Assembly: GCA_016840065.1 (NCBI GenBank)
Contig: JAEOTB010000037.1
Span: 67,886-131,885 of the forward strand
Source of the DNA: Candidatus Hermodarchaeota archaeon
Lineage (GTDB): Archaea; Asgardarchaeota; Hermodarchaeia; Hermodarchaeales; Hermodarchaeaceae
Length of the DNA: 64,000 bases
Reading direction: 5' to 3'
The translations under genes and the position numbers were made by a program. Positions 6,483-47,090 of the stretch are shown here, one piece after another (the stretch's first letter is position 1; every line of letters starts with the position of its first letter). The notes under the pieces are model-generated. The model did no database searches, was not told the origin of the DNA, and worked only from the letters and a program-made list of their open reading frames with translations.

Positions 6483-7838
6483 CTACTTCTTTACTGTTAT
6501 CTTCTGTACTACTCCAACAGCCACTGTGCGACCACTATCACGAATCGCAAACCGACCCAGCTGCTTCATATCGGCAAACCGCTCTAACACAATTGGCTGC
6601 ACTGGACTGAACTTGACGATAGCTGATTCACCTTGTTTGATGAAGTCTGGCTTCTCCTCCACCGTCTCGCCAGTACGAGGATCAATCTTGCTGATAAGCT
6701 CAGTGAAAGTCGTTGCCATCTGGAGTGTGTGAGCGTGCATAACTGGTGTGTACCCAGCGGCTATGGCTCGTGGGTGATGGATTACGATTATTTGTCCAAC
6801 GAAATCTGTGATAACCTTGGGTGGGTCGCTGACATGACCCATGACATCACCACGTTGAACCTCGCCTTTTCCAATGCCACGAACATTGAAACCGATGTTG
6901 TCGCCCGGCTCAGCCTTCTGCATTTTCTCATGGTGCATCTCGATTGACTTGACTTCGCCCGTATGCCCAGAGGGCATGAAGATTACTTTATCGCCAACTT
7001 TCAAAACACCAGTTTCAACTCTACCAACGGGAACAGAGCCTACGCCAGTAATGGTGTAGCAGTCCTGGATTGGTACTCGCAATGGTGCTTTGAGTGGTTT
7101 CTCTGGCTGTACGAACTTGTCAAGAGCCTGGAGCAAGGTGGGACCTTTATACCAGGGCATGTTCTCACTAGCCTTATCCAGCCCATCTCCTGTCCAACCG
7201 CTGGTTGGGATGAAATCGACTTTGCTTGGATCGAATTGAGCACCCTGGAGCACTGAAGTGACTTCTGCCTTGATTTCCTCGTAGCGTTCTTGGCTCCAAG
7301 GAGGCGTAGAGTCGTCCATCTTGTTCACAGCAACAGCGACCTGCTCGATACCAAGGGTTCGGGCAAGGAATGCGTGCTCACGGGTCTGCCCGCCCGCACT
7401 GATTCCAGCTTCAAACTCACCCTTACGTGATGAAACGACAAGAATCGCCGCATCAGCCTGGCTGGCACCCGTAATCATGTGCAAGAATTAAGGAGCGTAC
7501 CCCTCAATTATTCTTGATGAAGTCCGCGTGCCCAGGAGCGTCAATCAGCGTGAAGTAGTGTTTTTGTGTCTCGAATTTTCGAAAAGCTAGATCGATTGTT
7601 AGCCCACGTTCTCGCTCTTCCTTCAAGCGATCCATTACTTACCCCTTCATATCGTGTGATATGAAGTGTAGGCGAACTTGAACGAGGCGTCTTTCGTTTC
7701 TGATGCTAGCTTTTCTAATTTGAGCATTTCTTGTTTCGTTAGCGCACCCGTGACATATACGAGGTGGCCCATTAGCGTTGATTTACCATGATCAACGTGA
7801 CCAATGATGATCAAGTTGATGTGTGGTTTAGTAGCCAT
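6483..7838 (-). CDS. tuf: Translation elongation factor EF-1alpha, interrupted by two BHB introns; join(7838..7668, 7638..7511, 7479..6483), 431 aa
   Basis: GHVDHGKST in exon 1. Exon 2 reads [42 protein letters not shown]. Exon 3 reads [10 protein letters not shown]...NKMD. Exon lengths 171+128+997=1296 nt form one intact frame. Confidence 0.95.
7480..7510 (-). other. BHB intron 2 in tuf mRNA (31 nt)
   Basis: UCAU-CAAG-AA|U-AAUUGAGGGG(UACG)CUCCUUAAUU-CUUG-CA|C-AUGA, a full hBHBh' motif. Removal gives DFIKN MITG. Confidence 0.92.
7639..7667 (-). other. BHB intron 1 in tuf mRNA (29 nt)
   Basis: GCCU-AC|A-CUUCAUAUC(ACAC)GAUAUGAAG-GGGU-AA|G. Removal gives FKFAY|VMDRLKEE. Confidence 0.9.
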
Positions 7839-7957
7839 TTCTTAATCTGCCTCTATTATTTTTTTCAACTATTTTTGGCTTGAACTTTTATCATACTTTA
7901 TTGTTGTATGATGTCTGCTTGACATCGGTTCAAGCTTTGGTCAAGTCGCTGTGGTTG

Positions 7958-7974
7958 CTATAAAACTCTTTTGG
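7958..7974 (-). promoter_or_regulatory. BRE/TATA promoter for tuf
   Basis: Minus strand reads CAAAAGAG-TTTTATAG about 120 nt upstream of the start. Similar AAGAG-TT(T/A)TATA motifs lie upstream of rps12 (about 22882-22895) and rps10 (about 6374-6388). Confidence 0.6.
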
Positions 7975-7977
7975 CAA
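7964..7977 (+). repeat. Left copy of 14-bp direct repeat AACTCTTTTGGCAA
   Basis: Exact match to 21683-21696. Confidence 0.7.
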
Positions 7978-8003
7978 AGTGTTTACTTATGTTTGTAGAG
8001 AAG

Positions 8004-11000
8004 TCAAAGTGGTAGGAGGGCTTGGAAGGGGGATAACATAGGTGCTACTGTGGCTACTAGCACGCCAAGTATTTGTCCAAGAAGATTACGGACGATTTGA
8101 CCCACTACTTGATTGAGAAGAACCTTAACCACTCCAGCAAGAGTGAGATTACAAACCATCTTCCCCACAGGGAGTAGAACGCTATACCAGAGCCAAACCA
8201 CACTATCACGAACAATTGGTGATAACACACTAAGTATCCATGTAGCTATGAGATGAGCAAAATCTGCTAGCGTAAAGAAAGGAAAGCCCAACGCTTGCAG
8301 ACTTGCCCCGAAGCCGGTGATAACTAAGCTTAGTAACCCCGTCGCCGATAAACTCGTAGCAGTAATACCCAAACTAAACACTGACCCGCTGATGTATTGG
8401 AGAACTATAGCGAAAATACTGAATACAACGCCAATAAGCCAACCATATTGTGTAAGTGTAGCGAGGAAGGTGTTGATAGTGAATGTTAAGAATATGAAAA
8501 GCGCTGTACCGATTGCGCTGAGAATCAATGGGAGCAAGCTGCTGAATAAACTAGTAAGACCACTCCCAGTTGAAGCCGAAGAAGTGGAGGCTAAACCCCC
8601 ACCAAGAGCCCGACTAGTTAAACTAACAACGGCAAAATTCTGTATCAAAACGAGAAGCGGCGCTAATGAAGTGTATCGAGCATCCATTGTATTAATGCCA
8701 AGACTTGTGAGGATACTCTGAATGGCAGTAGTGATAGTGATTGCTACTAGAAGGGCCTTCCAGCGGCTGGGATTAAGTAACTGCCGAACACGCTGTTTGA
8801 TTGTGAAAAACAGGTTCTTTGCATAATCCTTCAGCCTGTCTGTTAGCTGGTCGCGAGCGCGACCTGTAAGCATCTGTATGTAACTAGTTTCAAGAATAAT
8901 TTGGGAAGGAAACTTTTGGCGCACAAACCGATCGAAAACATAGAATCTGCTGTAATATCCCCCTTTGTAGGTGTTTCCCCCACGAGAGCCGTATTGCCAG
9001 CTATTCCCTAATGTTCTATCTAGATTCTCGAAGATTGCGGGCCATCCACCAGGGTTTCCCCATCGACCTGTTTGATCTTTACCATTGTAGATGAAGGAAA
9101 GTTTTCCCCATTCCTTGTATGTAGACCATATTTTCTCATCAATGGATAGACTTCTCACGGTTTTTCCTCTATCAATTTCCTGATCAGATTGTAGAGGAAC
9201 AGGGCAGATACGACCCACCCCAAGTACTGCACAGAAATAGATGAGGGTGTTCAAATCATCCCGAGTTACATCATCTAATCCATAACGCCATGTTCGATCA
9301 CGAGCAGAATTCTTTCTTGCCGTCCAAAACGACCACGTTAATCTATAGAGTTTATTCTCTCCAAATCCACGAGTTGTACGACGGAGCCCGTAATACTGAT
9401 TCAATAGTCCTACATGTCGGTATTTGACATGAGTGGGCTCCAGTTGCATCGTCACCCCAACTGGTCCAGCAGGCGTGTTAACCAATTGAGTACCAGTTAA
9501 AGCCAGAGTTGTCAGGCCCATTAGCGGGTCAATATGCCCTTCACGACACTCGAATTCTACGAGCCGAAGCCCACCTAACTGTGGTTCGTCTGGTTTGGGT
9601 GGCATTTCATCATTCTGTTGAGGTTTCAGAATGAACAAGTTCCATTTAGTTTTCATTACCACATCAAGACGTTGTTTCATCGAAAGTAGTACGCCTTGAA
9701 TGAATGGATTTAGTTCTTGAAGTGTCGGAGGGGCTGCGATGAATAATTGATTCTGATATTTCCTCTTTACCTCTTTGACGGCTTCGGTCTGGAAAAGAGG
9801 ACCTTCGTCACAAAGAATACCTCTAGGAACCCCAGCAATGCAGCTGTAAAATTCAGCAAAGAGTAGGTATTGTCCTCTAATAGTTTTAGTCGAGAAGCCC
9901 TCAATATCTCCTGGATAATGTGTGTGTATCTGGGCATTGTTTGGATTTAGTAAATCCCAAAGACACCAGAAACTCTTTCTCTTTGCTGAAACTCCAGTAA
10001 ATCCAGTTCGAGTGGGAATAAGAAATGTGGGTAGTTCAATCCACCTATTACTCCATGTAGGCGCTTGGCTTGGTTTGTATCGAGCAGTAATCGTGGGATT
10101 AAGTGGAAGAATGAGAATAGCACCTTGCTGATTCTTGATATGGTTGATAAGGCTAGTATCTTGCTGGGCTAGTTCTGCAGTATCAATGTTTGAACGGTCT
10201 GGTTTGAGTATGAGAGCATTCTTGATATGGGCGACAACTGCATCTGAGTGGACTGGAAGACCATGATTCCTTCGGGCTTCTTGGAAATCAGCGTTGTCAC
10301 TTATTCGATATATCACTTGGAAAGTGGAGTAGGTTTTCCCTTTGTGATGTGTGTAGGTAATGAAGTTGTCCCGGACAATTCCAAGGTTTTCTTCTTCAAA
10401 ATAAACACGTTTTGTACCTTGCCCTGGAGGCGCTAACGCCATACGCTCTTCGTAAACCGCTGATGCTTGCTGCCAGTAAAGCCCCTTCGCATACCTTCCA
10501 TCTCCTATGCCCGCCCAATGCCGAAAGATAAGAACTTCTGTTGTTAACTTAAGTGAGCCAATCACAGGAATAGGTGTGCTATTCAGAATCTCCTTTTCCA
10601 ACCCCCTAACCTGCGAGTCAATCATCACACCCTCCTCAACAAGTGTAGCCATTGCTGGTAAAATTTCTTGGATTTGGGGAATAAGGATACCAATCTCCTT
10701 AACCGTAGTCCAGTCTAATCCCTTCATCTTGTCCAGTGTTTTCCTGATAGTTCCTTGAATTTGTTCTTTCATTATGCCTATACGGCCACACTTCAACGCT
10801 TGATCCAAGATATTGACATACGGGAAAGTCTCTAGTGTTGTTGGGTAAATGGCTTCAGCACCATAGTCGGGAGTTGTGAAAGTACCTGAAGCTCCAGGTG
10901 GGGGAGGTGAGGTCTCATCCTCACCAAAAAGGAAAGCTTGCAGAAAAAACCCAATTACTGGCAACTCTAACAGCTTGCTTATCAGAAATTCAAGAGGTAC

Positions 11001-14000
11001 GAATATGATGTTAGTTAGTGCATTTCGAACCGCTGTAATGATGCCGAATATTGCCTGTAATAGCACCATTCCTAATGTCATAAGTATCGTCTTCCCAATT
11101 TCTATTAAAACGCTCAAACACTGTGTAATGAAATCCCACGCAGGTCCTAGAATTGCCTTGGGGTCGAAAAAGCTCAATTGCCCGTCTGTCACCTTCTTGA
11201 TAGCATACTGGGTAGCTAACTCGCCTACAACCTCTGGTAGACTCAAGGGTTTCCCTGAATGCCTGTTCAGAGCCTCCGCTACCCCCTTAATCACATACAT
11301 AGGCTCTTCAATATAACCAGCCTCAAAAAGCAGAATAGCCTGCACACTTCTGTCATATACGACTTGCCAGCCGAATCTGTCTTCTAACCCTGCATTCAGT
11401 TTCAACAGTCGCAGTAACCCGGTCAGCTTGTAAGATGCTTCTTCCAGATTTCGTATCTTAGCATAGTGAATTAGTTCATCAAAGAGACGCTGAGCCTCCA
11501 GCCCCACCTGATTCCACGTCTCTGAACCCGCATCCTTGTACATCGACTCCGCAGTAGATAAGAGGGAATCGCGAGCTTCTTGGATGCGTTCCTGCAAAGC
11601 AACCTCGTCCCTCAGCCTCGCAAGCTTTGCCAAGGTTTCCGCTACTTTTACCTCCACTTGTTTCTGATGGATTACGGCCAGTATCGTGTTCTCTAGGTAC
11701 TTGTCTAGAGACTCATAGCCTAAATCCCATCCCCGCACCACCACCTCTCCATAAAAGAGGAAGGTGGGCACAAACCAGCCCATACTCAAAGACCCCTCAA
11801 AGACCTGAGTGGGAGCAAGATAGGGCTTGACACGGGACCAGTCCGCCTCCCCTACCTGATACTCTGGTGTGGTTGCAAAGGGACTCGCCTCGACTGATAG
11901 CAGCTGCGTTGACTGGAGGGCAGACTGCAAGAACTCGTCTTCCACCAGTGGATTTGAGTCAAAACACCATCGCTGGAGGTCACCCTCACCCAAATAGTAC
12001 AGATCATCGCCTAACTGTTGTTGAAGGGCTTGAAGCCGTAACATCTCTGCCAGCGATAGACGAGCCGCATCTACGGTGTGTTTTGTCGGGTCAACAGCGG
12101 TACGATAGCCCACTAAGAGGAAGCTACCTAATACTGTAGTGAGGGGTTCTACTTGGAAGGTTGATAGGTTCAAGGCTTGGAAGAATTGTAGGAGGTCTTG
12201 GGCATAGGCATCCAAGTTGGTTTGAGCGTGGTGGTGTAATTGCTCATGGAAGGTCAGAAAAGAAATATCTCCAGGGAGGCTAGCTCCAAGCCCTGCGAAC
12301 ATAAAAAGCAGAAGTTTGGGATCAACAAACGCAAGACCAGCTAGGCAGATAACAATCCAGGGTCCATTCATTAGGATGTAACTACCAATCAGTTGCTTAT
12401 CGTCAAGAGAAGCAAAGACATTGAGAATTGTGGTCTTGGCCTCGGCTTCTCCTGCCTGTAGGAGTGAAGTTCCCACAAACTCAGCCCGTAGGGTCACCAC
12501 ACCCACAAGACTTTGGGACACCAGCCAATCTAGTGTAGCCTCTCCTTCGGCGTTGGTGTAGGCTTCGCCAAGAAGTGATGTGCCGTTTATCCCCTCAAGG
12601 AAGAAGCGGATAAGCTGATGTGCCACTGGCTGTCCAGTGCTAGTGGTTACGATTGCAGTTATTTGGGTTGTCTGTTGAGTTGTAAGATCCGCTGGAACCG
12701 ACAATGTAAGTTGGGTTGTCGCCACCACACAGAACTCTATTATCTCACTGCTTGCACCAGCCGGACTCTTTGCGATGACAGTCGCCGTGTAGCTGTGCAT
12801 CCCCTGTAAGGGACCGATGATACCCGATGTCATCCACACACTACCATAACAGGAGAGAGCAAAGCTTTCTGGTACACTGTTGCCATCGGTGTCAAGCTGG
12901 ACGGTGAGTGTGAGGAGGTCGTCAGGGTATGTGGCGTTCAGAGTGACCTGTACACTCAAGGTGTCTGTATCACAAATTGTCGCATTACCATAGAGGGTAG
13001 ATAGCTTTGCAGTCAAGATGGTGGGCGGATGGTTGCAGAGGGTGACACTCTGCTCTGCTTGGCAAGTTCGTAATGCCAAGTCATATCCAATGAGGGTGAG
13101 GATGTGGTCACCATCTGGTAACGTGCTAGTATCGAGGGTAAGGGTGTGGCTACCTGATGAGTGGAGGCGGAATAGCACTACCTCGCCATCTAATAGTAAG
13201 ATTGCTTCTCTCATGTTCGCATCGGCGAGAAAGAGGGTGATTTCTACAATGCCTGTGAGGATGGTTCCTGCGGTGGGGGTGTCAATGCGAACCACTGGGT
13301 TCTCCAAGTCCACAGTGAAGGCTTCGGTGTATTCTGCGACATTACCCGCAATGTCAGTGGCTTTGATGAGAACTGTGTGTGGAGCCGCTGTAACTGCTAT
13401 TGTAAAGGTGGTCTCGTTGGTGTTCTCTGCAACACCAGAGAATATGCCATCGATGAAGAGTTCGATTGTCTCGCAATGCCTGTCTGTTACAAAGACCACC
13501 ACGTCAAGCGTGGTGTTTTCGGTGAACCCTGCCTCCGTTACTGGCAGAAAGACCTCCAAGATGGGTGCTGTGCTATCTATGAGAAAAGTGACACTCCGAG
13601 CAAGAGCATTTCCTGCGCGGTCCATTGCCTGAACCAGTATTGTGTGGGAACCATCAGTGAGATTGGTTAAGGTATATTGGCGGTAACTACCATCGAGTTC
13701 AACAGCTAGGGTTCCATCGAGGTAAACAGTAAAGGTTGCAATCCCTGCGGTGGTGTCGCTGGCACTCCACTGAATACGCGGATTTACACTAGAAGTGTGA
13801 GAGTCTTCCAAGGGGGCTGTGATGGCTAGAGTCGGGGAAGTTGCGTCTGTGGTAAAGATGTTTGAGGTGCTTTGGTGATTGCCAGCCAAATCAATGGCTT
13901 CAACGGTCAAAGTGTGTATGCTCTCGGTCAAGTTGGAAAGCAGGAACATCGTGTCTACGGTGTTCGCCAATAAAACGCCGTCAAGGTAGACCTGATAATA

Positions 14001-16394
14001 GGCAATTCCCGTATTGTCAGTTCCCTCCCAAATAGCTGACAAACCAGTAGCGCTATAGTACTCACCCTCCAATGGTGATGCTATTACGACATCGGGTAAT
14101 GTGTTATCTACAACCACAATAAGGCTGTGAGTGGCTATCCAACCTACACCATCGGAGGCTATAGCAGCCAGGGTGTGGTTACCATCACACCACTCTTGAG
14201 TATCCCAAGGAAACAGAAAGGGAGGACAGGTCGTTGTGTTGTAGAGGAGAACACCATCAACGGACAGGACAACCCACAACACACCAGAGGGATTGATACC
14301 AAAATCATCTGCTGATACCTCCACGACAACGGTTTGGCTGAGAATTGTTCCCTCAGAGAGAAAATCCACCGTTACAATGGGTGGTGTGGCGTCAACATGA
14401 AGCGTTCGTAACAAGCTAGCCCAGTTCCCCACCCTATCTACTGCTGTGGTATTCACGGTGTATGTTCCTTCTATTGTGGGTACTGTCCATTCTTGGGTTT
14501 GTGAGCCTGTATCAGTTGTTGAGATCCTGTGATGGTAGTTATTGGGACCTGTGATGGTCAGGTTGGAAGCCGCCAACCCTGCTGGGGGATTGCCCTCATC
14601 GGTCTGCTGCCACACAAGACTACACAGTTTTCCCGCAGCAACATGAGCAGCATTGGCTGGGGCAGAGAAGGAAAGGAGGGGTGTCGTGCAATCAATCAGA
14701 TAGATACCGTGAATTGTTGTTGCACCCACTTCACCAGTTTGGGGGTTTACCGCAAATGCCATCACATCGTACCAGCCCTCCAATACACCAGCAACAACCT
14801 CTGTCAAGTAGCCATCACCACTCCCATTTACAGGAAGATAGAGATTACCACTTGGTTGTTCATAGACTTGGGTGCCATCACAGATAATTCGATATTTTGC
14901 AAAGGTGGGACCTGCTGCATAGGAGACAGTCACATTGAACTGATCGCCCACAGCCGCATAGGTTTGAGTCGAATCTGCTGTGACACTCCACCCCCCATGT
15001 GTTGCCAACCTGTTAACCGAGTTTGCGGAAAAAGTCCAAACACCTTCTGCAGGATTATTCACGAATATACTATACGACGCTTCACTGAGCGAAACAGAGC
15101 CTGATGGGTTGTTGGGGCTAGATTGGTAATTACTCCAGCCACAGGGGAGGCTGAGCGAGAAGCTCCCCGGTTGCCACTGGGCACCCGTAACTTGACTACT
15201 AAAGGAAATGCCCCAATCAGCAAATGAAGCACCACTGATAACGGAAAAGGTGGTGTCGGCGGTACGCTCCCAGCTAGCCTCCATTGATTCGTGGTGATTG
15301 AACACCGTCACAGGCCAATCCGAGGCACCGCTGTCTGAGCGAGTGAAATAATATGAAGTACCAGTACCACTGGCGCAAGTATCTAAAACACTCACATGAC
15401 CCTTTCCCCAGTCCACTCCATTTGACACCGCATACTGCTTGGTGGGATCCGCTTCACTTCTAAGAGCTAGGTCCAGGTCACTGGATCGAAGCTTGTGGAG
15501 AGCCCACAGGTTAGCATAGTCAAACCGCACCGCACTCCAATGACTACTGAACAGGGTTGAAGCAGTGGTCACCCAGACATTTAGACGAAGCTCAATGGTT
15601 GCCGCATGATCCGGTAGGGCGCTGTCAAAATGCAGGTTAACCTCATCGGTTACCCAGGTGTCCAGCGGCGAAGCCAAATCCATATCATAGGGGGTGGCTG
15701 CTAGTACGCTATCGACGTAGATTTGGGCGCATATTCGCACCCAGTTTTTGTAGCGAAAGCCAAGGGTTAGTTGGGTGCGGTGGAGGGGGAAGAGTCCGCG
15801 TGTGTCGCTGAACCAGCCCGGCGGCACCAAGAAGCTTTGGCTGAAGTAGCCCTGACAGGTACCCTGGTAGATAATCCAGCCGATGAGGAGGGGTGATTCG
15901 ATTTCTCCGTAGGATATTCCTTCTTCACTGGCAAAGGAGATTTGGGCGATTCCATCGGTGTGGTTGGTCCAAGGAGTGCCGTGGTCGAAGTGGTAGTCGC
16001 TGAGCCATTCGCTGCGCTGCCCCCATAAATCGCCCACATAGGAGGTGAAGAAATAGTCGAAGTAGGTTCCCTCCGTGGGCGGATCCACTTGGGGACCTAT
16101 CACTTCCAGCGACGAGGCTTCGGTCATGTAGCGGTTTGTGGTGGGTGTTGTACAACCTGCTGTAATAGTGCCAGAAAGGGGTGCAGAAGACCCTGAGAAA
16201 ATATCCACTCCACTTGTTGGAGGTATCAGTTGTTGTGGGTTTGGATTGGCGATTGGTAGAGTTTGCTGATGGTGAGAAGCTGACTCCCTTAGAGGAGGAG
16301 AGTCTGTAGTGAGGTGGGGGGATTGGGGGAAGGCGCTGATGCTGCCTAGAAAGAGAAGGAGGAGCACGCAGGCGATGGAACCATTCACCTTCAT
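8004..16394 (-). CDS. Giant (2796 aa) exported/membrane protein with tandem bacterial Ig-like (Big) repeats and a multi-TM C-terminus
   Basis: N-terminal signal peptide. Repeats of the form D-x-T-x-P...G-x-HT...A-x-D-x-A-G-N. Internal hydrophobic helices and a long hydrophobic C-terminus. Confidence 0.8.
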   Translation of the reverse strand: MKVNGSIACVLLLLFLGSISAFPQSPHLTTDSPPLRESASHHQQTLPIANPNPQQLIPPTSGVDIFSGSSAPLSGTITAGCTTPTTNRYMTEASSLEVIGPQVDPPTEGTYFDYFFTSYVGDLWGQRSEWLSDYHFDHGTPWTNHTDGIAQISFASEEGISYGEIESPLLIGWIIYQGTCQGYFSQSFLVPPGWFSDTRGLFPLHRTQLTLGFRYKNWVRICAQIYVDSVLAATPYDMDLASPLDTWVTDEVNLHFDSALPDHAATIELRLNVWVTTASTLFSSHWSAVRFDYANLWALHKLRSSDLDLALRSEADPTKQYAVSNGVDWGKGHVSVLDTCASGTGTSYYFTRSDSGASDWPVTVFNHHESMEASWERTADTTFSVISGASFADWGISFSSQVTGAQWQPGSFSLSLPCGWSNYQSSPNNPSGSVSLSEASYSIFVNNPAEGVWTFSANSVNRLATHGGWSVTADSTQTYAAVGDQFNVTVSYAAGPTFAKYRIICDGTQVYEQPSGNLYLPVNGSGDGYLTEVVAGVLEGWYDVMAFAVNPQTGEVGATTIHGIYLIDCTTPLLSFSAPANAAHVAAGKLCSLVWQQTDEGNPPAGLAASNLTITGPNNYHHRISTTDTGSQTQEWTVPTIEGTYTVNTTAVDRVGNWASLLRTLHVDATPPIVTVDFLSEGTILSQTVVVEVSADDFGINPSGVLWVVLSVDGVLLYNTTTCPPFLFPWDTQEWCDGNHTLAAIASDGVGWIATHSLIVVVDNTLPDVVIASPLEGEYYSATGLSAIWEGTDNTGIAYYQVYLDGVLLANTVDTMFLLSNLTESIHTLTVEAIDLAGNHQSTSNIFTTDATSPTLAITAPLEDSHTSSVNPRIQWSASDTTAGIATFTVYLDGTLAVELDGSYRQYTLTNLTDGSHTILVQAMDRAGNALARSVTFLIDSTAPILEVFLPVTEAGFTENTTLDVVVFVTDRHCETIELFIDGIFSGVAENTNETTFTIAVTAAPHTVLIKATDIAGNVAEYTEAFTVDLENPVVRIDTPTAGTILTGIVEITLFLADANMREAILLLDGEVVLFRLHSSGSHTLTLDTSTLPDGDHILTLIGYDLALRTCQAEQSVTLCNHPPTILTAKLSTLYGNATICDTDTLSVQVTLNATYPDDLLTLTVQLDTDGNSVPESFALSCYGSVWMTSGIIGPLQGMHSYTATVIAKSPAGASSEIIEFCVVATTQLTLSVPADLTTQQTTQITAIVTTSTGQPVAHQLIRFFLEGINGTSLLGEAYTNAEGEATLDWLVSQSLVGVVTLRAEFVGTSLLQAGEAEAKTTILNVFASLDDKQLIGSYILMNGPWIVICLAGLAFVDPKLLLFMFAGLGASLPGDISFLTFHEQLHHHAQTNLDAYAQDLLQFFQALNLSTFQVEPLTTVLGSFLLVGYRTAVDPTKHTVDAARLSLAEMLRLQALQQQLGDDLYYLGEGDLQRWCFDSNPLVEDEFLQSALQSTQLLSVEASPFATTPEYQVGEADWSRVKPYLAPTQVFEGSLSMGWFVPTFLFYGEVVVRGWDLGYESLDKYLENTILAVIHQKQVEVKVAETLAKLARLRDEVALQERIQEARDSLLSTAESMYKDAGSETWNQVGLEAQRLFDELIHYAKIRNLEEASYKLTGLLRLLKLNAGLEDRFGWQVVYDRSVQAILLFEAGYIEEPMYVIKGVAEALNRHSGKPLSLPEVVGELATQYAIKKVTDGQLSFFDPKAILGPAWDFITQCLSVLIEIGKTILMTLGMVLLQAIFGIITAVRNALTNIIFVPLEFLISKLLELPVIGFFLQAFLFGEDETSPPPPGASGTFTTPDYGAEAIYPTTLETFPYVNILDQALKCGRIGIMKEQIQGTIRKTLDKMKGLDWTTVKEIGILIPQIQEILPAMATLVEEGVMIDSQVRGLEKEILNSTPIPVIGSLKLTTEVLIFRHWAGIGDGRYAKGLYWQQASAVYEERMALAPPGQGTKRVYFEEENLGIVRDNFITYTHHKGKTYSTFQVIYRISDNADFQEARRNHGLPVHSDAVVAHIKNALILKPDRSNIDTAELAQQDTSLINHIKNQQGAILILPLNPTITARYKPSQAPTWSNRWIELPTFLIPTRTGFTGVSAKRKSFWCLWDLLNPNNAQIHTHYPGDIEGFSTKTIRGQYLLFAEFYSCIAGVPRGILCDEGPLFQTEAVKEVKRKYQNQLFIAAPPTLQELNPFIQGVLLSMKQRLDVVMKTKWNLFILKPQQNDEMPPKPDEPQLGGLRLVEFECREGHIDPLMGLTTLALTGTQLVNTPAGPVGVTMQLEPTHVKYRHVGLLNQYYGLRRTTRGFGENKLYRLTWSFWTARKNSARDRTWRYGLDDVTRDDLNTLIYFCAVLGVGRICPVPLQSDQEIDRGKTVRSLSIDEKIWSTYKEWGKLSFIYNGKDQTGRWGNPGGWPAIFENLDRTLGNSWQYGSRGGNTYKGGYYSRFYVFDRFVRQKFPSQIILETSYIQMLTGRARDQLTDRLKDYAKNLFFTIKQRVRQLLNPSRWKALLVAITITTAIQSILTSLGINTMDARYTSLAPLLVLIQNFAVVSLTSRALGGGLASTSSASTGSGLTSLFSSLLPLILSAIGTALFIFLTFTINTFLATLTQYGWLIGVVFSIFAIVLQYISGSVFSLGITATSLSATGLLSLVITGFGASLQALGFPFFTLADFAHLIATWILSVLSPIVRDSVVWLWYSVLLPVGKMVCNLTLAGVVKVLLNQVVGQIVRNLLGQILGVLVATVAPMLSPFQALLPL

Positions 16395-31239: not shown

Positions 31240-31347
31240 TGGCGCCCGCACCGGGATTCGAACCCGGGTCCTAGGAGTGACAGTCCCAGATGATAGACCT
31301 GATTCTGCATTCTGGCAGTTATTGCCAAAATCCTACACTATACGGGC
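31240..31347 (-). tRNA. tRNA-Asp(GUC) with 30-nt D-loop intron (31303-31332, position 15/16)
   Basis: GCCCGUA/UGCGGGC acceptor, CU-GUC-AC loop, UUCGAAU T-loop, encoded CCA. Intron hairpin AUUUUGGCA/UGCCAGAAU. Confidence 0.93.
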
Positions 31348-31439: not shown

Positions 31440-31599
31440 TGGTCCCGCCTCCCGGATTTGAACCAGGTTATGGGTCCTTGAAATGCTCCAAGGACAAACC
31501 ATCTGGTTACTGCCTTGACTGACACCACGTCATAACCCGGGGGGCTCAGGGTGCGAGTAATCTACAGCCAGACGCTCTACCGGACTAAGCTAAGGCGGG
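31440..31599 (-). tRNA. tRNA-Tyr(GUA) with two introns: 54 nt at 37/38 (31508-31561) and 29 nt at 48/49 (31468-31496)
   Basis: CCCGCCU/AGGCGGG acceptor. BHB helices CUGU:GCAG and AUGG:CCAU. Spliced length 77 nt. Confidence 0.92.
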
Positions 31600-32223: not shown

Positions 32224-32829
32224 TTGGTAGATGAGCATCCACTGGAAGAAGTTTCTCTAGATGAAGATAAGGAAGAACCGCGCCCTCAGCTCCCAGAGGA
32301 ACCTATAACAGCGAAGCTGTCCAGAGGACGTGTCGTAGTTAAGGGGGAGATGGCCCGTGTTCTATACGACGCTGGGCACTTTGGCACTTTGAAAAGTGAA
32401 TTAGAACTCGTCTTAGAGGCTGAGGAAGCCCTCTTACTTATACGACGAAAGCGAATTCAGGTCTTTGACAGAAAAGGAACTGAACTAGATTTCTCGGTGT
32501 TGCTTCAGATATTATCAGAACGCCACCCTAGATTATGGACGCAGTATCTTGTATACAGTGACCTTAGGAGCAGAGGTTATGTTGTCCGAACAGGCTATGG
32601 AAAAGGACTCTGGTTTCGCGTTTATCCACGGGGCGCCAAACTAAACGAGGCAACAGCGAAATATTTTGTGTGCGCCATATCAGAGGGTTCACCACTTAAA
32701 GTAGCAGAACTTGAGAAGCTTAGCAGTCTAGCGTTAAGGAACCGGAAAAAGCTGATGCTAGCTGTCTTGGATAGACAAGGTGAAACAACCTACTATCTAG
32801 TTTCACACGCCGACATCACGGCAGACTAG
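32224..32829 (+). CDS. endA: tRNA-intron (BHB) splicing endonuclease subunit, probably the structural subunit
   Basis: EEALLL, YLVYSDLRSRGYVVRTG, FRVY, RKKLMLAVLD. No catalytic His after FRVY. Confidence 0.85.
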   Translation: MVDEHPLEEVSLDEDKEEPRPQLPEEPITAKLSRGRVVVKGEMARVLYDAGHFGTLKSELELVLEAEEALLLIRRKRIQVFDRKGTELDFSVLLQILSERHPRLWTQYLVYSDLRSRGYVVRTGYGKGLWFRVYPRGAKLNEATAKYFVCAISEGSPLKVAELEKLSSLALRNRKKLMLAVLDRQGETTYYLVSHADITAD

Positions 32830-33868: not shown

Positions 33869-34014
33869 TGCCGAGGGCGGGCTTTTCGCCGAACATTGCT
33901 GTTCAGTTTCGAACCCGCGATCTCCAGATGGCTCCGGCGCCAGGTTCAATTATAATTGACCCTGGGGCAACGCCCTATGAGTCTGGCGCTCGAACCAGGC
34001 TAAGCTACCTCGGC
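33869..34014 (-). tRNA. tRNA-Met(CAU), elongator type, with 46-nt intron at 37/38 (33930-33975) and 25-nt T-loop intron (33883-33907)
   Basis: GCCGAGG/CCUCGGC acceptor, CCAGA/UCUGG anticodon stem. T-loop BHB UUCG:CGAA with a GCAA-capped hairpin. Confidence 0.9.
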
Positions 34015-34159
34015 GTTTCCCTATCCCTGATTCGTTCCTTTTAATTCTTATTCTCAGGACCGCTACCCCCATTCAGTGCTCGAAGCAGTTTTAAAGAGAA
34101 GGCTGTCTCATCATTGAATGCGGGGGCCCTTCAAGGGTCAGCGACCGCATGACAAGGCG

Positions 34160-34260
34160 GCGGGGGTTTCCAAGAGACCCTATAGCCAAGCCTGGTCAAA
34201 GGCGCAGGACTTAAGATCCTGTCTCGCAGGAGTTCCCGGGTTCGAAGCCCGGCCCCCGCA
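34160..34260 (+). tRNA. tRNA-Leu(UAA) with 16-nt intron at position 8/9 (34168-34183)
   Basis: GCGGGGG/CCCCCGC acceptor, long variable arm, CU-UAA-GA loop. BHB GGGG:CCCU with bulges GU|U and AU|A. Confidence 0.88.
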
Positions 34261-34329
34261 CCTTTCTTTTAGATAACCTCACTTCCAGTTAGAAAATGAA
34301 AAGCCGTTTTCATAAGGAAAAAAGGAGAG

Positions 34330-34435
34330 TGGAGCCTCGGGCGAGGATTGAACTCACGACCAGCAGCTTACAAGGTTCAACGTTACCGGTTTGGTTTCCG
34401 GAAACTCTGTCGCTCTACCACTGAGCTACCGAGGC
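34330..34435 (-). tRNA. tRNA-Thr(UGU) with 31-nt intron in the anticodon stem (34376-34406, 30/31)
   Basis: GCCUCGG acceptor, CU-UGU-AA loop. BHB CGAC:GUUG with bulges AG|A and AA|C. Confidence 0.9.
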
Positions 34436-34547: not shown

Positions 34548-34653
34548 GGGCTGGTGGTCTAGATTCCCAGAAGGATAGCCTTCTGGACTAGATTGGTATG
34601 ATTCGCGGTTTGGGTCCGTGAGATCCCGGGTTCAAATCCCGGCCGGCCCACCA
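34548..34653 (+). tRNA. tRNA-Pro(UGG) with 29-nt D-loop intron (34565-34593)
   Basis: GGGCUGG/CCGGCCC acceptor, UU-UGG-GU loop. BHB CUAG:CUAG and hairpin CCAGAAGG/CCUUCUGG. Confidence 0.92.
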
Positions 34654-37859: not shown

Positions 37860-37872
37860 TAGGTGGGTCGGT

Positions 37873-39666: not shown

Positions 39667-40969
39667 ATGAACTTGGGTTCAAGTACGCCTAGTAGTGCTA
39701 CTACAAAGTATGAAATCCGATGTAAAATAGAAATTAGCGGAGTTGTTGAGACTCCAGATGTCGTTGGAGCGCTCTTTGGTCAAACAGAGGGCCTACACTT
39801 CATGATACGCGTTTCATGAAGGGGTAATCGGTGAAGATTTAGATCTGAGAGAACTGCAGCAGTCTGGACGAATAGGTCGAATAAAGGTTGAACTACACTC
39901 AGAGGGAGGAAAATCCCGCGGAATAATAGTAATCCCTTGCAGCCTTGACCGTACTGAAACAGCCATTCTTGCAGCGGCATTGGAGACAGTTGACAGAGTT
40001 GGACCGTGTTCAGCGAAAATCACTCTGGAGAAGGTTGAAGATGTCCGTGACTCTAAACGCAAACAGATTATTGATCGAGCTGTGGCTTTACTGCGTGTAT
40101 GGGAGGGTGAAACCTCTCCAGGGGCACAGGAGATAACCGATAAAGTTACACGTGAAACGAAGACAGCAGAAATCACTCGATTTAATGGGCTTCCTGCGGG
40201 TCCTTCTGTTCAAGAATCAGATACAATAATCGTCGTAGAAGGGAGGGCTGATGTCCTCGCATTGCTCCGAGCAGGAATAAAGAACGTTGTTGCAGTTGAG
40301 GGTACCAGTATTCCTCCTTCCATCATAAAACTAGCAAAAACAAAAACGATTATTGCCTTCCTTGACGGCGATAGGGGTGGCGACTTGATTCTTAAAGAAT
40401 TGTCTCAGGTTACAGATATCAAGTTTGTAGCGCGAGCGCCAGCGGGACGTGAGGTTGAAGAACTTACAACAAAGGAGATAACCAAAGCTCTTAGAAATAA
40501 AGTGCCTGCATCCCAGGTTGTTGGACGGATAAAACGAGGGGTAAGCGAGTCGGCAACAACAAGAGCCTCTTCAACTCCAAAACGCAGAACTCGCCGAACA
40601 ACACAGAAAACAACTGCACCGCGGCGAACTGCAACCCGTTCTAAGACCACGACCAGAAGTGTTACACGACCAAAAAGTGGAAGCATCCCTAAACCGATTC
40701 GAGAATTAGCTGAGAAAATACAAGAGACAATGACTGCAATGATACTCGATAAGGATAAGAAGGTCTTGAAAGAAGTTCATGTCGCAGAACTGGCTTCAAT
40801 GCTGCAAGAAATAGAAAAAGCGAAAACAATCATTCTCGATGGTGTAATCACTCAGCGACTGGTAGACATCGCTGGTGAACGTGGAGTGACCCTAATCATA
40901 GGCGCGAGAACCGGTAAAATTGTAAAGAGACCCGTGAAAATCAAGATACACACATTCAACGATTTATGA
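39667..40969 (+). CDS. dnaG: Archaeal DnaG (primase / exosome-associated), interrupted by one BHB intron; join(39667..39796, 39828..40969), 423 aa
   Basis: Exon 1 reads TTKYEI...[19 protein letters not shown]. Exon 2 reads [19 protein letters not shown]...VVEGRAD...DGDRGG. Exon lengths 130+1142=1272 nt are in frame. Start could be TTG 39673. Confidence 0.94.
39797..39827 (+). other. BHB intron in dnaG mRNA (31 nt)
   Basis: GCCU-AC|A-CUUCAUGA(UACGCGUU)UCAUGAAG-GGGU-AA|U. Removal restores GQTEGLLG. Confidence 0.9.
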
Positions 40970-42730: not shown

Positions 42731-43234
42731 CTAACTGAGACCAGCTGATTTTCTGGTATGACGTATTCGAACAGCTGTTCCACGTGTCAACTCTAGCATT
42801 TCTTGGGGGCAGAGATAAGTTTTACCAACTGCAAGGAGTCTGTCTTCTTGATCTACGATAAGCGCTTCATCACGCGCCCTCAATTGAGAGTCGACCTGAA
42901 TTACATGTTTAGCGAAGACACTGCGCCCTTTCCTAATAAAGGGAGAAATCTCATTTGGGACCATTACTCGGTAACGTGGTGATTGTGATGCCTTATGGAG
43001 ACGCTCCCCACCCGGAAATGTCAGGACGATACGACCATCTCTTGCTCGGAGGATTGCAAGAAGGTTTCCTTCAAATGAAATATATCGAATGCGTCCTGTC
43101 CCTCTAGAATATTTAATTTTACATCCATCAGGGAACAAAGATTCTCCAATATCCTCTCCGAATTGGTAATTTGCCACGCCTCTCACTTTAAAGAGAGGAT
43201 TAACCGTAGATGTCAGCGTTGTCTCCTTTCCCAA
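42731..43234 (-). CDS. PUA-domain protein (archaeosine TGT C-terminal-like)
   Basis: [32 protein letters not shown]. Confidence 0.85.
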
Positions 43235-44408: not shown

Positions 44409-44560
44409 TGCAAGACCCTCCTAATCACGGAACGCTAAAAGTTTTTGTGTTATGGCGGTAATACCTATTCAGTATCCAGGAGCTATTCCTTAAATTCTCA
44501 ATAAAGGCAAATAATAAGGAGAAAAACAACGGGCCAAGATGCCAATCGGAGACAGAGAGT

Positions 44561-45079: not shown

Positions 45080-45133
45080 CAATAGAGTTAGAACCTATAC
45101 CTTTCTGACAGACTGAGATCGGGTGGACTTGAA

Positions 45134-45709
45134 ATGAAAGTTCCAAAATGGCGCATCTTCGTTCTCAGAATTGGTCATAGACCTGAAAGGGATAAACGTC
45201 TCACCACACATTTAGGACTGACCGCACGAGCCTTAGGCGCGCAAGGTTTTTGGATTACAGGACTTCGTGACCCGAATGTTATCAAGTCAATTCAACACGT
45301 TAGTTGTCAGTGGGGACATAGAGCATTTATTGTTCAGAACCAAGAGTCGTGGCGGAAATGTATCCAGAAATGGAAGAACCAAGATGGTGAAGTCGTTCAT
45401 CTAACGATGTATGGGCTTCACATTGACGATGTGATACCGCGAATAAGAGCTTCACCCTGCGACAAACTTGTAGTAGTAGGGGGACCAAAGGTGCCCGGTG
45501 AGCTGTTCAACCACGCGGATTATAATGTTGCAATTGGGCATCAACCGCACAGTGAAGTAGCAGCGCTAGCAATTTTTCTCGACCGTCTTTACCAAGGTAG
45601 TTCTCTTCATTTTGTCTCAGACGATGCTGAACTATCTGTTGAGCCAACTGCTCATGGGAAGCGTTTACAGGACCGCACTACTCAAAAAGAAGACAAGACT
45701 GTGCAATAA
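45134..45709 (+). CDS. trm56: tRNA (cytidine56-2'-O)-methyltransferase
   Basis: LRIGHRPERDKR, HLTMYG, QPHSEVAAL. Confidence 0.95.
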   Translation: MKVPKWRIFVLRIGHRPERDKRLTTHLGLTARALGAQGFWITGLRDPNVIKSIQHVSCQWGHRAFIVQNQESWRKCIQKWKNQDGEVVHLTMYGLHIDDVIPRIRASPCDKLVVVGGPKVPGELFNHADYNVAIGHQPHSEVAALAIFLDRLYQGSSLHFVSDDAELSVEPTAHGKRLQDRTTQKEDKTVQ

Positions 45710-45750
45710 AAAACCCTTTATTCAATGAAGGCTAAAATAACATAGTAAAC

Positions 45751-46263
45751 ATGTCATCGACACGTGAGGAACTAATCAAAACTGTCGTGCAAGAATTTGC
45801 AGGCGAAGAAGCGTTAGAGGTACTGGGACACCTGAAGGAAGACGTGGAGACGACAGACGAGGTAATTGCCACAGAAACTGGCATGCGCTTAAACGCTGTT
45901 AGAAAGATTCTCTATAAATTATATGACCTACATCTAGCATCTTATAGAAGAACACGTGATAAATCAACAGGATGGTTTAAGTATTTCTGGCTACTCGAAC
46001 CTAGTAGGATTCATGGCATTCTTTTGGAAAGGAAGCTGAAGGTTCTGGAAAGGCTTGAGCAGCGCCTGATTTACGAAGGCCAAAACACCTTCTATTATTG
46101 TAAGAACAATGGTTGTCCTCGTCATACCTTTGAGGAAGCCATGGCGCAAACCTTTAAATGCCCAATCTGTGCCGGACACCTCGACCACGACGACAACTCA
46201 GAGATTATCAGAATCCTCAAGAAACAAATCGAGCTCCTAAAGGCTGATATCGAATCGGGTTAA
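45751..46263 (+). CDS. tfe: Transcription factor E (TFE alpha)
   Basis: TDEVIA, VRKILYKL, GWFKYFW, Zn ribbon FKCPIC. Confidence 0.94.
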   Translation: MSSTREELIKTVVQEFAGEEALEVLGHLKEDVETTDEVIATETGMRLNAVRKILYKLYDLHLASYRRTRDKSTGWFKYFWLLEPSRIHGILLERKLKVLERLEQRLIYEGQNTFYYCKNNGCPRHTFEEAMAQTFKCPICAGHLDHDDNSEIIRILKKQIELLKADIESG

Positions 46264-46298
46264 ACCAACTTAGCAGCAAGGAGCCGAAATCACAAGTT

Positions 46299-46406
46299 GG
46301 GCCGATGGTCTAGCTATCCAATTGGGAAACTCCCTTTGGACTAGAAGGTTATGACACCGCGCTTACACCGCGGTGGTCGGGAGTTCGAATCTCCCTCGGC
46401 CCACCA
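46299..46406 (+). tRNA. tRNA-Val(UAC) with 31-nt D-loop intron (46316-46346, 17/18)
   Basis: GGGCCGA/UCGGCCC acceptor, CU-UAC-AC loop. BHB CUAG:CUAG with bulges CU|A and AA|G. Confidence 0.93.
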
Positions 46407-46543
46407 TCACTTCATTAGTCAGGAAGAGTGTATTACCTCTCTTTTGATTCAATCTAGGTTGATGACTGTTTATTTTGTTTTTTGCAAGAGCCAGCGGAAT
46501 AAACTTTTAAAAGCGAGCAGCCGATACCAGCAAATCAGCTTTT

Positions 46544-46629
46544 GCCGGGGTTTCCTAGCCTGGTAAGGAGCAGGCCTGCTAAGTCTGTGACCATTGGTCT
46601 CGAGGGTTCGAATCCCTCCCCCGGCGCCA
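46544..46629 (+). tRNA. tRNA-Ser(GCU), no intron
   Basis: GCCGGGG/CCCCGGC acceptor, CU-GCU-AA loop, long variable arm, CCA. Confidence 0.95.
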
Positions 46630-46744
46630 CATACCTTCTCTTACCCTCCTACTTGTCCTTCCCTCTACTCTTCTCTTTCACTTACTGCATATGAAAATCA
46701 ATCCCAGAAATGGTTAAATATGGTGGAATAATGTGAGGCATTTG

Positions 46745-47090
46745 GACAGTGAGCCTAGGCGGGGGGCTAGAAGCCCCGCAGCACGACTACGGGCTGGCCA
46801 AGGTTCCCCTCTACCGCAAATACTCTATAGCGGGCTGAATGCCGGCGTGAGGCTTCCTAACCCGGTGTACGACTCGCAGTTCGTTGGCAGTGAAGATCCG
46901 CCTCGGAGGATCGCAGGTGGTGGTAGGCTTTTCGTAGGAAGGGCTGAATCACCTCTAGCGTGTGAACCCAGCGAGGCCCTGGCGGGAGCAGCGTAAGCGC
47001 GCACTGTTGGTGCTTCCGAGATTCCCGGGTCGGAGACCTGTCTGTGGGTACGGCGGCGGTGAAGGTTGTCAATTGTCGGGGTTCACTGTC
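46745..47090 (+). ncRNA. ffs: SRP (7S) RNA containing a 31-nt BHB intron in the Alu domain
   Basis: Terminal helix GACAGUGAGCC/GGUUCACUGUC, Alu start CUAGGCGGGGGG, helix 8 AGG-CCC(UGGC)GGG-AGCAG. Length 346 nt, or 315 nt after intron removal. Confidence 0.9.
46771..46801 (+). other. BHB intron in SRP RNA (31 nt)
   Basis: GGCU-AG|A-AGCCC..(CACGA)..GGGCU-GGCC-AA|G. Removal restores the helix-3 loop UAGGG, complementary to helix-4 loop CUCUA. Confidence 0.8.

Follow-up and report, generated by a model that had tools for sequence, protein, structure and literature searches.

In the literature that we searched, archaeal mRNA introns of the bulge-helix-bulge (BHB) type were confirmed only in the pre-mRNA of crenarchaeal cbf5 (Watanabe 2002; Yoshinari 2006; Yokobori 2009, PMC2738675) and in one Haloferax 5′ untranslated region, that of the Haloferax volcanii HVO_1309 mRNA, where the BHB intron was shown in vivo and in vitro (PMC7714728). 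The permuted SRP RNA of Thermoproteus is processed at BHB sites and circularised (PMC4731332). tRNA genes of Thermoproteales and Asgard archaea carry introns with BHB boundaries in the D loop, the T loop, the anticodon stem and at position 8/9, with two or more in a gene and with repeated and recent gains (Sugahara 2008; Fujishima 2010; PMC11291895; bioRxiv 10.64898/2026.10.13.758758). These papers concern tRNA genes only; the texts of PMC11291895 and of bioRxiv 10.64898/2026.10.13.758758, searched by term, mention no introns in mRNAs or SRP RNA. The focal lineages of the latter, a 2026 Asgard tRNA preprint, are other Asgard classes, the string "Hermod" is absent from its text, and it leaves open how the introns arrived. 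In Aeropyrum pernix, the splicing endonuclease is an (alpha-beta)2 enzyme (PDB 3p1z; PMC3241643).

We analysed a stretch of 64,000 nucleotides from a Candidatus Hermodarchaeota archaeon (the window) and found 13 discrete inserts: two in tuf, one in dnaG, one in the SRP RNA gene and nine in seven tRNA genes. On the strength of their junctions and motifs, these inserts are very probably archaeal BHB introns, which would be cut out by EndA, the endonuclease of tRNA splicing, with the exons joined by the ligase RtcB. Like the cbf5 intron, those in tuf and dnaG are short BHB elements within a coding frame, in a host predicted to have a hetero-oligomeric EndA of broad specificity, and have been gained or lost between related lineages. 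Unlike it, they are read here from DNA, lie in an Asgard archaeon, occur several to a genome, and have tuf and dnaG (with moxR and acs elsewhere in the genome) as hosts; cbf5 itself is uninterrupted in this genome, with TruB_N positions 1-149 in one 349-residue stop-free frame. As in HVO_1309, an mRNA would be the substrate of the tRNA splicing endonuclease, but the demonstrated Haloferax intron is in an untranslated leader, while the predicted introns described here are inside coding frames. The tRNA inserts share the sites, the multiplicity and the boundaries of the tRNA introns described previously, as well as signs of recent gain, since genera differ in their Asp and Tyr inserts; the mRNA and SRP RNA introns have no counterpart in those papers. 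Maturation of the SRP RNA would depend on the tRNA splicing machinery as in Thermoproteus, although the gene here is colinear, with a simple 31-nt intron in the helix-3 loop, rather than split into permuted halves.

The layout used for comparison consists of a 4-nt strand, a 3-nt bulge, a hairpin, the complementary 4 nt and another 3-nt bulge, with the cut after the second bulge base. Eight inserts fit it cleanly (tuf 1, tuf 2, dnaG, SRP, Tyr 29 nt, Met 25 nt, Thr and Val), and the central helix is complete, with 4 of 4 pairs, in these eight and in Leu. Pro, Leu, Asp and the two anticodon-loop inserts (Tyr, 54 nt; Met, 46 nt) fit it only in relaxed form. Minimum-energy folds reproduced the motif in five of the six inserts tested. 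A previous reading made from the sequence only had counted 15 inserts in tuf, dnaG, SRP RNA and tRNAs. All four classes are present where it placed them, and its counts for tuf, dnaG and SRP RNA hold; the tRNA genes contain 9 inserts instead of 11, a figure that probably requires nested units to be counted within the two long anticodon-loop inserts. Its single layout for all inserts applies cleanly to eight and loosely to five, and its figure of ten inserts of 29-31 nt was too high, since we found eight or nine. Its statement that cutting at the motif restores frame or fold was borne out: the tuf and dnaG frames are rejoined, and the spliced tRNAs are recognised at full length. Group I and group II self-splicing introns were considered and rejected, since the inserts are 16-54 nt long and a ribozyme core takes hundreds of nucleotides; no Rfam intron family matched within the window.

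tuf encodes the translation factor aEF-1alpha, and its reading frame is broken twice.

7668..7838, minus strand: tuf exon 1, 57 codons, Pfam GTP_EFTU positions 1-38
7639..7667, minus strand: tuf intron 1, 29 nt, relaxed BHB, apparent copy of the dnaG intron
7511..7638, minus strand: tuf exon 2, 42 codons plus 2 nt, GTP_EFTU positions 44-84
7480..7510, minus strand: tuf intron 2, 31 nt, full hBHBh′ motif
6483..7479, minus strand: tuf exon 3, GTP_EFTU positions 86-187 plus domains 2 and 3, NCBIfam EF-1alpha positions 102-424

The three frames thus partition one Pfam GTP_EFTU domain. Read into the first insert, exon 1 meets a stop after 6 codons; the first base of exon 3, which includes the stop codon of the gene, finishes a split Asn codon. 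Intron 1 has two G-U pairs in its central helix and a 9-bp hairpin, without an outer exon helix, and intron 2 has a 10-bp hairpin and a 4-bp outer exon helix. tuf is uninterrupted in 11 family genomes, including all 10 relatives in which it is assembled, and their DNA equals the predicted ligated junction at both sites, with a 1-nt sliding ambiguity at intron 2. At 1,296 nt, the spliced coding sequence is as long as those of G001 and G003. Its dN/dS of 0.03-0.05 equals the value between two intron-less relatives, which indicates that the spliced form is under strong purifying selection. When proteins were searched for a full-length match to spliced tuf, the best was 95% identical and intron-less, and the protein cluster of tuf contains just a 331-residue exon-3 piece from this genome. 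A 332-residue tuf call on a JGI contig, considered as a further intron case, proved to be a deletion of roughly 25 nt.

The reading frame of dnaG is broken once.

39667..39796, plus strand: dnaG exon 1, 43 codons plus 1 nt, frame open from ATG
39797..39827, plus strand: dnaG intron, 31 nt, relaxed BHB
39828..40969, plus strand: dnaG exon 2, NCBIfam "DNA primase DnaG" positions 32-419 of 419 (450 bits), with the Toprim domain

The dnaG intron combines its complete central helix with an 8-bp hairpin and has no outer exon helix. It occupies the identical site in all 13 family genomes examined, which belong to two genera. In the alignment of these introns, 96% of cells are paired, two pairs show compensatory changes (U-A/U-G/C-G and A-U/G-C exchanges in the stem) and the loop is variable; the covariation score exceeded that of 499 of 500 shuffles. 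Exon differences between relatives near the junction fall at third codon positions. These patterns suggest that it is the structure of the dnaG intron, and not its sequence, that is conserved.

Nine separate inserts of 16-54 nt interrupt seven tRNA genes, which were checked by running ARAGORN on spliced and unspliced genes and by Rfam alignments.

31440..31599, minus strand: tRNA-Tyr(GUA), two inserts, both in the Rfam alignment, spliced 77 nt
31508-31561, minus strand: Tyr insert of 54 nt, anticodon loop, relaxed layout
31468-31496, minus strand: Tyr insert of 29 nt, between variable loop and T stem, full hBHBh′ motif
31240..31347, minus strand: tRNA-Asp(GUC), D-loop insert at 31304-31331 (28 nt) or 31303-31332 (30 nt)
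33869..34014, minus strand: tRNA-Met(CAU), two inserts, spliced 75 nt
33930-33975, minus strand: Met insert of 46 nt, anticodon loop
33883-33907, minus strand: Met insert of 25 nt, T loop, full hBHBh′ motif
34160..34262, plus strand: tRNA-Leu(UAA), 16-nt insert at 34168-34183 between positions 8 and 9, spliced 87 nt
34333..34435, minus strand: tRNA-Thr(UGU), 31-nt insert at 34376-34406 in the anticodon stem, spliced 72 nt
34548..34653, plus strand: tRNA-Pro(UGG), 29-nt D-loop insert at 34565-34593, spliced 77 nt
46299..46406, plus strand: tRNA-Val(UAC), 31-nt D-loop insert at 46316-46346, spliced 77 nt

All seven spliced tRNAs (72-87 nt) were accepted by ARAGORN over their full length and fold normally, and six of the seven unspliced genes went unrecognised. 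The 29-nt Tyr insert (9-bp stem, 6-bp outer helix) is shared only by G001, of the same genus, among the relatives aligned, and nine genomes of the other genus have exactly the predicted junction. For Asp, a 4/4 central helix with an 8-bp stem or a 3/4 helix with a 9-bp stem can be drawn; both registers yield tRNA-Asp in ARAGORN, and the 30-nt register matches the tRNA length of relatives. This insert is absent from G001 and from most relatives. Both Met inserts are kept in 13 family genomes, and five genomes of the second genus have a third. The Leu hairpin is just 2 bp; at the same site the second genus carries a longer insert (23 nt in the one sequence parsed) with a 5-bp stem. In Thr, 40 letters stand where the Rfam model has 9, and the insert is kept in four genomes of the same genus with a compensatory stem change. 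The Pro insert has a perfect 8-bp hairpin and a palindromic 4-nt central helix, with the first hairpin pair mismatched, and the Val insert has a 5-bp stem and a 5-bp outer helix. The Val and Pro inserts are found at the same D-loop site and have similar 3′ ends.

The remaining insert lies in the Alu domain of the SRP RNA.

46747..47088, plus strand: SRP RNA gene, 342 nt with the insert, Rfam Archaea_SRP at full length (103.9 bits)
46771..46801, plus strand: SRP RNA insert, 31 nt, BHB, helix-3 loop of the Alu domain

The helix-3 loop here has 32 letters against 2 in the Rfam model, and the insert forms a 5-bp stem above its central helix. Eleven SRP RNAs were found in the family (G000 included), all 338-342 nt long, with the insert in each of the seven that were read. 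In seven other Asgard lineages the SRP RNA is 307-321 nt long, and the insert is absent from the five read; an eighth has a 356-nt SRP RNA with a different insert elsewhere. The helix-3 sequence of G016, G018 and G019 equals the predicted junction. For this insert alone we considered that the 31 nt form a lineage-specific extension of the helix-3 loop, retained in the mature RNA. Such an extension would fit the presence of the insert in every family SRP RNA read, the different SRP RNA insert of G018, a local fold no stabler than shuffles (z = 0.39) and the lack of compensatory changes in the insert helices, in which only G-C/G-U exchanges were seen. It is nonetheless unlikely. The 4-bp helix and both 3-nt bulges are in register, 31 nt is the modal intron size, the insert ends fall where other lineages run contiguous, and variation is concentrated in the hairpin tip, with the motif strands kept or altered by G-C to G-U exchange (in either direction) only. 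In SRP Alu domains the loop of helix 3 takes part in a tertiary contact, which an additional hairpin would upset. An excised BHB intron is thus the reading that we favor for SRP RNA as well.

Presence of the motif alone weighs little, because the bare motif is frequent: in strict form it occurs 3,143 times in the genome. It is only about 1.3-1.5 times as common there as in local shuffles, and this enrichment was therefore not used as evidence. At a given position and length, however, the chance of the strict motif is about 3 in 100,000. For tuf 1, tuf 2, SRP and the 29-nt Tyr insert, the ends are defined independently by relatives, and chance does not explain why these ends coincide with the predicted cuts.

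The genome also encodes enzymes that could perform the reaction. One EndA subunit lies in the window, inside the tRNA cluster.

32224..32829, plus strand: EndA second (beta-like, structural) subunit, Pfam tRNA_int_endo_N and tRNA_int_endo

This subunit (201 residues) has a residue other than His at the catalytic His position when aligned to Methanocaldococcus jannaschii EndA, and in two-domain EndA models its match is to the N-terminal half. Its 185-residue paralogue on contig C85 corresponds to the catalytic C-terminal half and has the Tyr-His-Lys triad. The best alignment of the latter is with the catalytic subunit of A. pernix and extends to the Crenarchaea-specific loop and a Lys matching K44. 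RtcB is likewise encoded in the genome (566 bits). As in A. pernix, a catalytic subunit with that loop and a K44-type Lys would be paired with a non-catalytic partner; unlike in A. pernix, the second subunit resembles M. jannaschii EndA most, more than it does the crenarchaeal beta subunit. The two subunits may assemble as a heterotetramer. The gene content points to an EndA of the two-subunit, broad-specificity type.

We propose that the primary tuf, dnaG, SRP RNA and seven tRNA transcripts fold locally into a 4-bp helix with a 3-nt bulge at either end, one on each strand. In this central helix, the exon bases that immediately precede the insert would pair with the final bases of the insert itself, below the intron hairpin. 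A heteromeric EndA, made of the alpha subunit from C85 and the His-less beta-like subunit from the window, would cut after the second base of each bulge, and RtcB would ligate the exons and probably circularise the intron. Until the exons are joined, neither tuf nor dnaG could be read in a single frame, and neither the tRNAs nor the SRP Alu domain could fold. Given the exact junctions, these transcripts, the mRNAs included, very probably have to be spliced.

One alternative is that the inserts are never removed, which would make tuf and dnaG pseudogenes, or genes expressed in fragments, and the motif a coincidence. The NCBI annotation of the contig does call only the 331-residue exon-3 piece of tuf, which is the kind of misannotation that the sequence-only reading had anticipated; the bare motif is common by chance, and the genome is a draft metagenome-assembled genome, 84% complete. 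This alternative is nevertheless very improbable. All exons are open, spliced tuf has the low dN/dS of its intron-less relatives, dnaG, its exons under selection, has stayed interrupted across 13 genomes from two genera, and wherever relatives allow a test, insert ends and BHB cut sites coincide. The intact spare copies that would have undercut the splicing proposal were looked for, and the assembly holds no second tuf, dnaG or SRP RNA gene, although at 84% completeness spare copies could exist.

Equally improbable is the idea that ribosomes get past the inserts in the two mRNAs through programmed frameshifting or translational bypassing. Each mRNA insert is a stable hairpin with a stop soon past the exon end, an arrangement similar to the one that signals bypassing in phage T4 gene 60. 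The dnaG intron, however, is 28, 29 or 31 nt long depending on the species, so the frame offset is not conserved, and matching take-off and landing codons were not seen at any of the three junctions (tuf 1, tuf 2 and dnaG). The same motif at the same size also interrupts untranslated tRNAs and SRP RNA, and the insert ends are endonuclease cut positions to the base.

That the inserts are assembly or binning artefacts is hardly credible even for a metagenome bin of 131 contigs, since Logan contigs of three runs contain the tuf inserts without gaps, relatives assembled independently also have the inserts of dnaG, SRP and several tRNAs, and artefacts would not yield BHB motifs with exact junctions. 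The Logan DNA contigs, which bear on an assembly concern raised with the sequence-only reading, contain tuf intron 1 in runs X1, X2 and X4 and tuf intron 2 in X1 and X2, and among these independent contigs from three runs none skips the tuf introns. One Logan variant, at 7641, changes a central-helix G-U of tuf intron 1 to G-C.

Further mRNA introns were read elsewhere in the genome, in moxR and in two acs paralogues. A genome-wide census by motif and ORF merging gave passes at the true junction no more often than when the 3′ cut was shifted by 1-2 nt (148 versus 124-136, 37 versus 33-41 and 68 versus 64-68); the sole weak excess was for stems of at least 8 bp (26 versus 12-18 shifted). Since true and shifted cuts scored alike, the method is unfit for counting mRNA introns, and only individually read introns are given: at least six in this 84%-complete genome, a figure that is not a full census. 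kbl on C104 has a real 34-nt gap, but its BHB register is off the homology-defined 5′ end by 2 nt, and it was left unclassified. Pfam showed no split gene among five pairs of same-strand ORFs, overlapping or adjacent, in the window. The proposal that this lineage routinely applies tRNA-type splicing to mRNAs and SRP RNA is supported: junctions, selection and enzymes speak for it, "routinely" amounts to at least six mRNA introns, and the SRP RNA might, less probably, retain its insert.

If these transcripts are spliced, an abundant essential translation factor, a primase-like DnaG and SRP RNA would all require tRNA-type splicing in a lineage related to the ancestor of eukaryotes. Such a requirement would also prevent the simple coupling of tuf and dnaG translation to transcription. 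Automatic annotation under-calls essential genes in such genomes, as the record of tuf as a 331-residue fragment illustrates.

The two mRNA introns of similar form bear on how such elements arise. tuf intron 1 and the dnaG intron have the same ends and are preceded by the same six exon bases, and tuf intron 1 appears to be a recent copy of the family-wide dnaG intron. Both tuf introns are specific to this species. Searches for intron sequence families with blastn-short and patterns recovered only the tuf-1/dnaG pair and found no donor for tuf intron 2. Introns probably turn over fast in this lineage. We regard it as possible, at a little under even chances, that BHB micro-introns are mobile here and spread between mRNAs as well as among tRNAs, tuf intron 1 having arisen within the species as a copy of the dnaG intron; this would be a living Asgard case of intron proliferation in protein genes with the protein-only splicing machinery shared with eukaryotes. 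The six-base exon stretch pre-existed in tuf at the insertion site. The copy would have landed directly after six bases identical to the dnaG 5′ exon end, the very portion of the splicing motif that the exon supplies, and this would point to microhomology or an RNA intermediate as the guide for insertion. Together with the empty target site in sister genomes, the tuf copy of the dnaG intron would represent a concrete, datable intron gain.

The tuf gene (aEF-1alpha) runs through three different frames, interrupted by 29 and 31 nt, and dnaG is broken after 43 codons by 31 nt. The three tuf pieces match positions 1-38, 44-84 and 86-187 of a single domain (Pfam GTP_EFTU), and the second dnaG piece aligns to the NCBIfam DnaG model (419 positions) from 32 to 419. 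The inserts in these genes and in the SRP RNA, as read from bulge-helix-bulge (BHB) motifs, are as follows.

7639-7667, minus strand: tuf intron 1, 29 nt
7480-7510, minus strand: tuf intron 2, 31 nt
39797-39827, plus strand: dnaG intron, 31 nt
46771-46801: SRP RNA insert, 31 nt

All three mRNA inserts start three bases on from a 4-nt exon strand and contain an 8-10 bp hairpin, the complement of that strand and then two bases. An additional 4-bp outer exon helix gives tuf intron 2 the full hBHBh' motif; the other two mRNA introns have no such helix (relaxed form). Minimum-energy folds give the same shapes as the motif readings. The sequence-only reading had placed BHB introns in tuf (two), dnaG (one) and SRP RNA (one); all were found, and the predicted cuts yield the sequence of uninterrupted relatives for tuf and of other Asgard lineages for SRP RNA.

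G000, the genome holding the window, is a draft of 2.59 Mb in 131 contigs and is 84% complete; the window is part of its contig C10. The family comprises two genera, g1 (G000 to G003) and g2 (G004 onwards), and the closest tuf loci among public genomes are those of Hermodarchaeota MAGs, at 89-90% protein identity, which makes G000 an Asgard archaeon. Both tuf sites were readable in G000 and in 10 relatives from its family, 11 genomes in all; two more loci stop short of the sites. tuf is interrupted only in G000 (1/11); the other 10 genomes have open frames of 436-473 residues, and their DNA at both sites corresponds to the G000 exons joined at the predicted cuts. Against the relatives, the placement of intron 1 is unique and that of intron 2 can slide one base. 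The intron ends, fixed independently of any motif, coincide with canonical cut positions. Since the 10 relatives are uninterrupted, as is a full-length, 95%-identical tuf protein from a different sample, comparison indicates that both introns are recent gains at the species level. The claim that cutting restores the frame held for tuf: the spliced coding sequence is 1296 nt, equal to that of G001 and G003. Spliced G000 tuf gave dN/dS values of 0.046 and 0.032 against G001 and G003, respectively, compared with 0.042 between those two, and the G000 gene is undecayed.

The tuf interruptions are also present in contigs assembled from sequencing runs (Logan contigs), all four runs being from one study that is possibly the source of the G000 genome. 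Runs X1 and X2 gave contigs over 7233-7919 and 7233-7968, gapless and with one letter different, and no intron-skipping contig was found among those covering the tuf intron sites. A low-depth contig from run X4 spans intron 1, where a letter change at 7641 converts a central-helix G-U pair to G-C. Another split tuf, on a JGI metagenome contig from a more distant relative (L143:1043-2318), was rejected as an intron candidate; it has a deletion of ~25 nt after the VMDRL motif and is probably an assembly error or pseudogene. Adjoining tuf in the window is one open reading frame 2796 codons long (8004-16394, minus strand).

The dnaG intron, by comparison among relatives, is old. Its site is identical in all 13 family genomes examined, and in 16 of 18 relatives a pattern search found it once each. 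In g2 the intron is 28 nt long, in g1 29 or 31 nt; with no fixed frame offset kept, this variation argues against translation through the insert or a fixed ribosomal shift. In the intron alignment, 96.4% of cells are paired, against ~50% in slid registers. One stem pair switches among A-U, G-C and G-U and another among U-A, U-G and C-G, and the covariation score was matched by 1 of 500 shuffles. Where the flanking exons differ, they do so at third codon positions.

The first seven bases of tuf intron 1 and its last twelve are the same as in the dnaG intron, as are the six exon bases upstream of the cut, and the pattern search found two copies of this element in G000 only. The tuf intron 1 stem is that of the g2-type dnaG intron (e.g., in G025), unlike the present dnaG intron of G000. 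We conclude from these likenesses that tuf intron 1 probably originated as a copy of the dnaG intron, either that of its own lineage or that of a relative. The empty site in G001 and G003, same-genus genomes with intron-less tuf, already has the same six bases, precisely what the exon contributes to the motif (the 4-nt helix strand and two bulge bases). They may reflect either the insertion mechanism or merely the survival of spliceable insertions.

In the SRP RNA, the Rfam alignment has 32 letters against 2 in the model at the helix 3 loop. Family SRP RNAs are 338-342 nt long (11/11 found, G000 included), and the insert is carried by all seven read, varying mostly at the hairpin tip and by G-C/G-U exchange in the central helix. 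SRP RNAs in seven other Asgard lineages are 307-321 nt long and lack the insert in all five read; in three of these lineages (G016, G018 and G019) the site has the predicted junction sequence. An eighth has a 356-nt SRP RNA with a different insert at another place. An extension retained in the mature RNA would fit the absence of compensatory change from the insert helices in the sequences compared and a local fold that is not unusually stable; we consider it unlikely, and the comparisons favor an intron.

G000 encodes RtcB and two EndA paralogues. The 185-residue protein on contig C85 aligns over its length to the Aeropyrum pernix EndA catalytic subunit (E = 6e-45), retains the Tyr-His-Lys triad and includes the loop segment, with Lys at the K44 place; in A. 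pernix, that loop and K44 give cleavage of noncanonical and relaxed motifs (PMC3241643). The 201-residue paralogue has both EndA domains and lacks His at the catalytic position. The NCBIfam two-domain EndA models are matched in their N-terminal half by the 201-residue protein and in their C-terminal half by the C85 protein. The enzyme appears to be a two-subunit EndA, a type noted for its broad specificity (PMC5829648). The noncatalytic subunit gene (32224-32829, plus strand) lies within the intron-rich tRNA cluster, flanked by tRNA clusters.

The mRNA and tRNA inserts can be regarded with high confidence, and the SRP RNA insert with somewhat lower confidence, as real BHB introns. The mechanism is of a known kind. 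mRNA BHB introns have been reported in cbf5 (PMC2738675) and the Haloferax HVO_1309 leader, in a paper that knew only one other example (PMC7714728); for SRP RNA, the one case of processing at BHB sites in the literature searched is the permuted gene of Thermoproteus (PMC4731332). Plentiful tRNA introns in Asgard archaea are already published (PMC11291895; bioRxiv 10.64898/2026.10.13.758758); a text term search of these two papers found no mention of mRNA or SRP RNA introns. New relative to the searched literature are the host genes, the number per genome and a documented intron copy.

Elsewhere in G000, moxR has a 26-nt BHB insert (C10:39546-39571, plus strand), and two acs paralogues have 31-nt inserts at the same site (C105:254-284 and C113:13561-13591, both minus strand) whose stems differ through compensatory exchange. 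cbf5, the classic archaeal mRNA intron host, is uninterrupted (C98:11056-11397, minus strand). A kbl/bioF-type gene (C104, ~14834-14867, minus strand) has a 34-nt frame-breaking insert just 5' of its Ser-Lys-Ala motif, where the BHB register misses the homology-defined 5' end by 2 nt. A stand-alone 167-residue protein in the window (42731-43234, minus strand) has no domains of archaeosine tRNA-guanine transglycosylase other than C2 and PUA; its gene adjoins that of the proteasome-activating ATPase.

Inserts are present in seven of the ten tRNA genes in the window, as nine discrete units rather than the eleven first claimed; that count probably split a 54-nt and a 46-nt anticodon-loop insert. 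Removal restored the fold, ARAGORN then returning full-length Tyr, Asp, Met, Leu, Thr, Pro and Val tRNAs of 72-87 nt; unspliced, six of the seven were unrecognized and Asp was mis-anchored. Alignments show tRNA introns turning over between relatives. The 29-nt tRNA-Tyr intron occurs, besides G000, only in same-genus G001 among the relatives aligned, and nine g2 genomes have the exact junction. The tRNA-Asp D-loop intron is found in G000 only, g2 having another in the anticodon loop; tRNA-Met has a third intron in five g2 genomes; and the tRNA-Leu intron, 16 nt in G000, has a longer g2 counterpart (23 nt in one parsed sequence). The tRNA-Thr intron shows compensatory stem change among relatives, and the tRNA-Pro intron stem varies in sequence among the four same-genus genomes.

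The D-loop introns of tRNA-Pro (34565-34593, plus strand) and tRNA-Val (46316-46346, plus strand) share their tRNA position and palindromic 4-nt central helix and resemble each other at the 3' end; this could be another related pair. The 54-nt anticodon-loop intron of tRNA-Tyr (31508-31561, minus strand), kept in 11 genomes, has a conserved internal loop, flanked by two helices and containing CUGA and AUGA motifs, that resembles a k-turn or a box C'/D' element. The tRNA-Trp intron of some Euryarchaeota carries a guide RNA, and by analogy this intron may do so. Immediately 5' of tRNA-Leu(UAA), a conserved element of ~40 nt (34120-34159, plus strand), present in all family genomes aligned, starts by repeating the 7-nt 5' strand of the acceptor; it may represent a leader, another intron or a small RNA.
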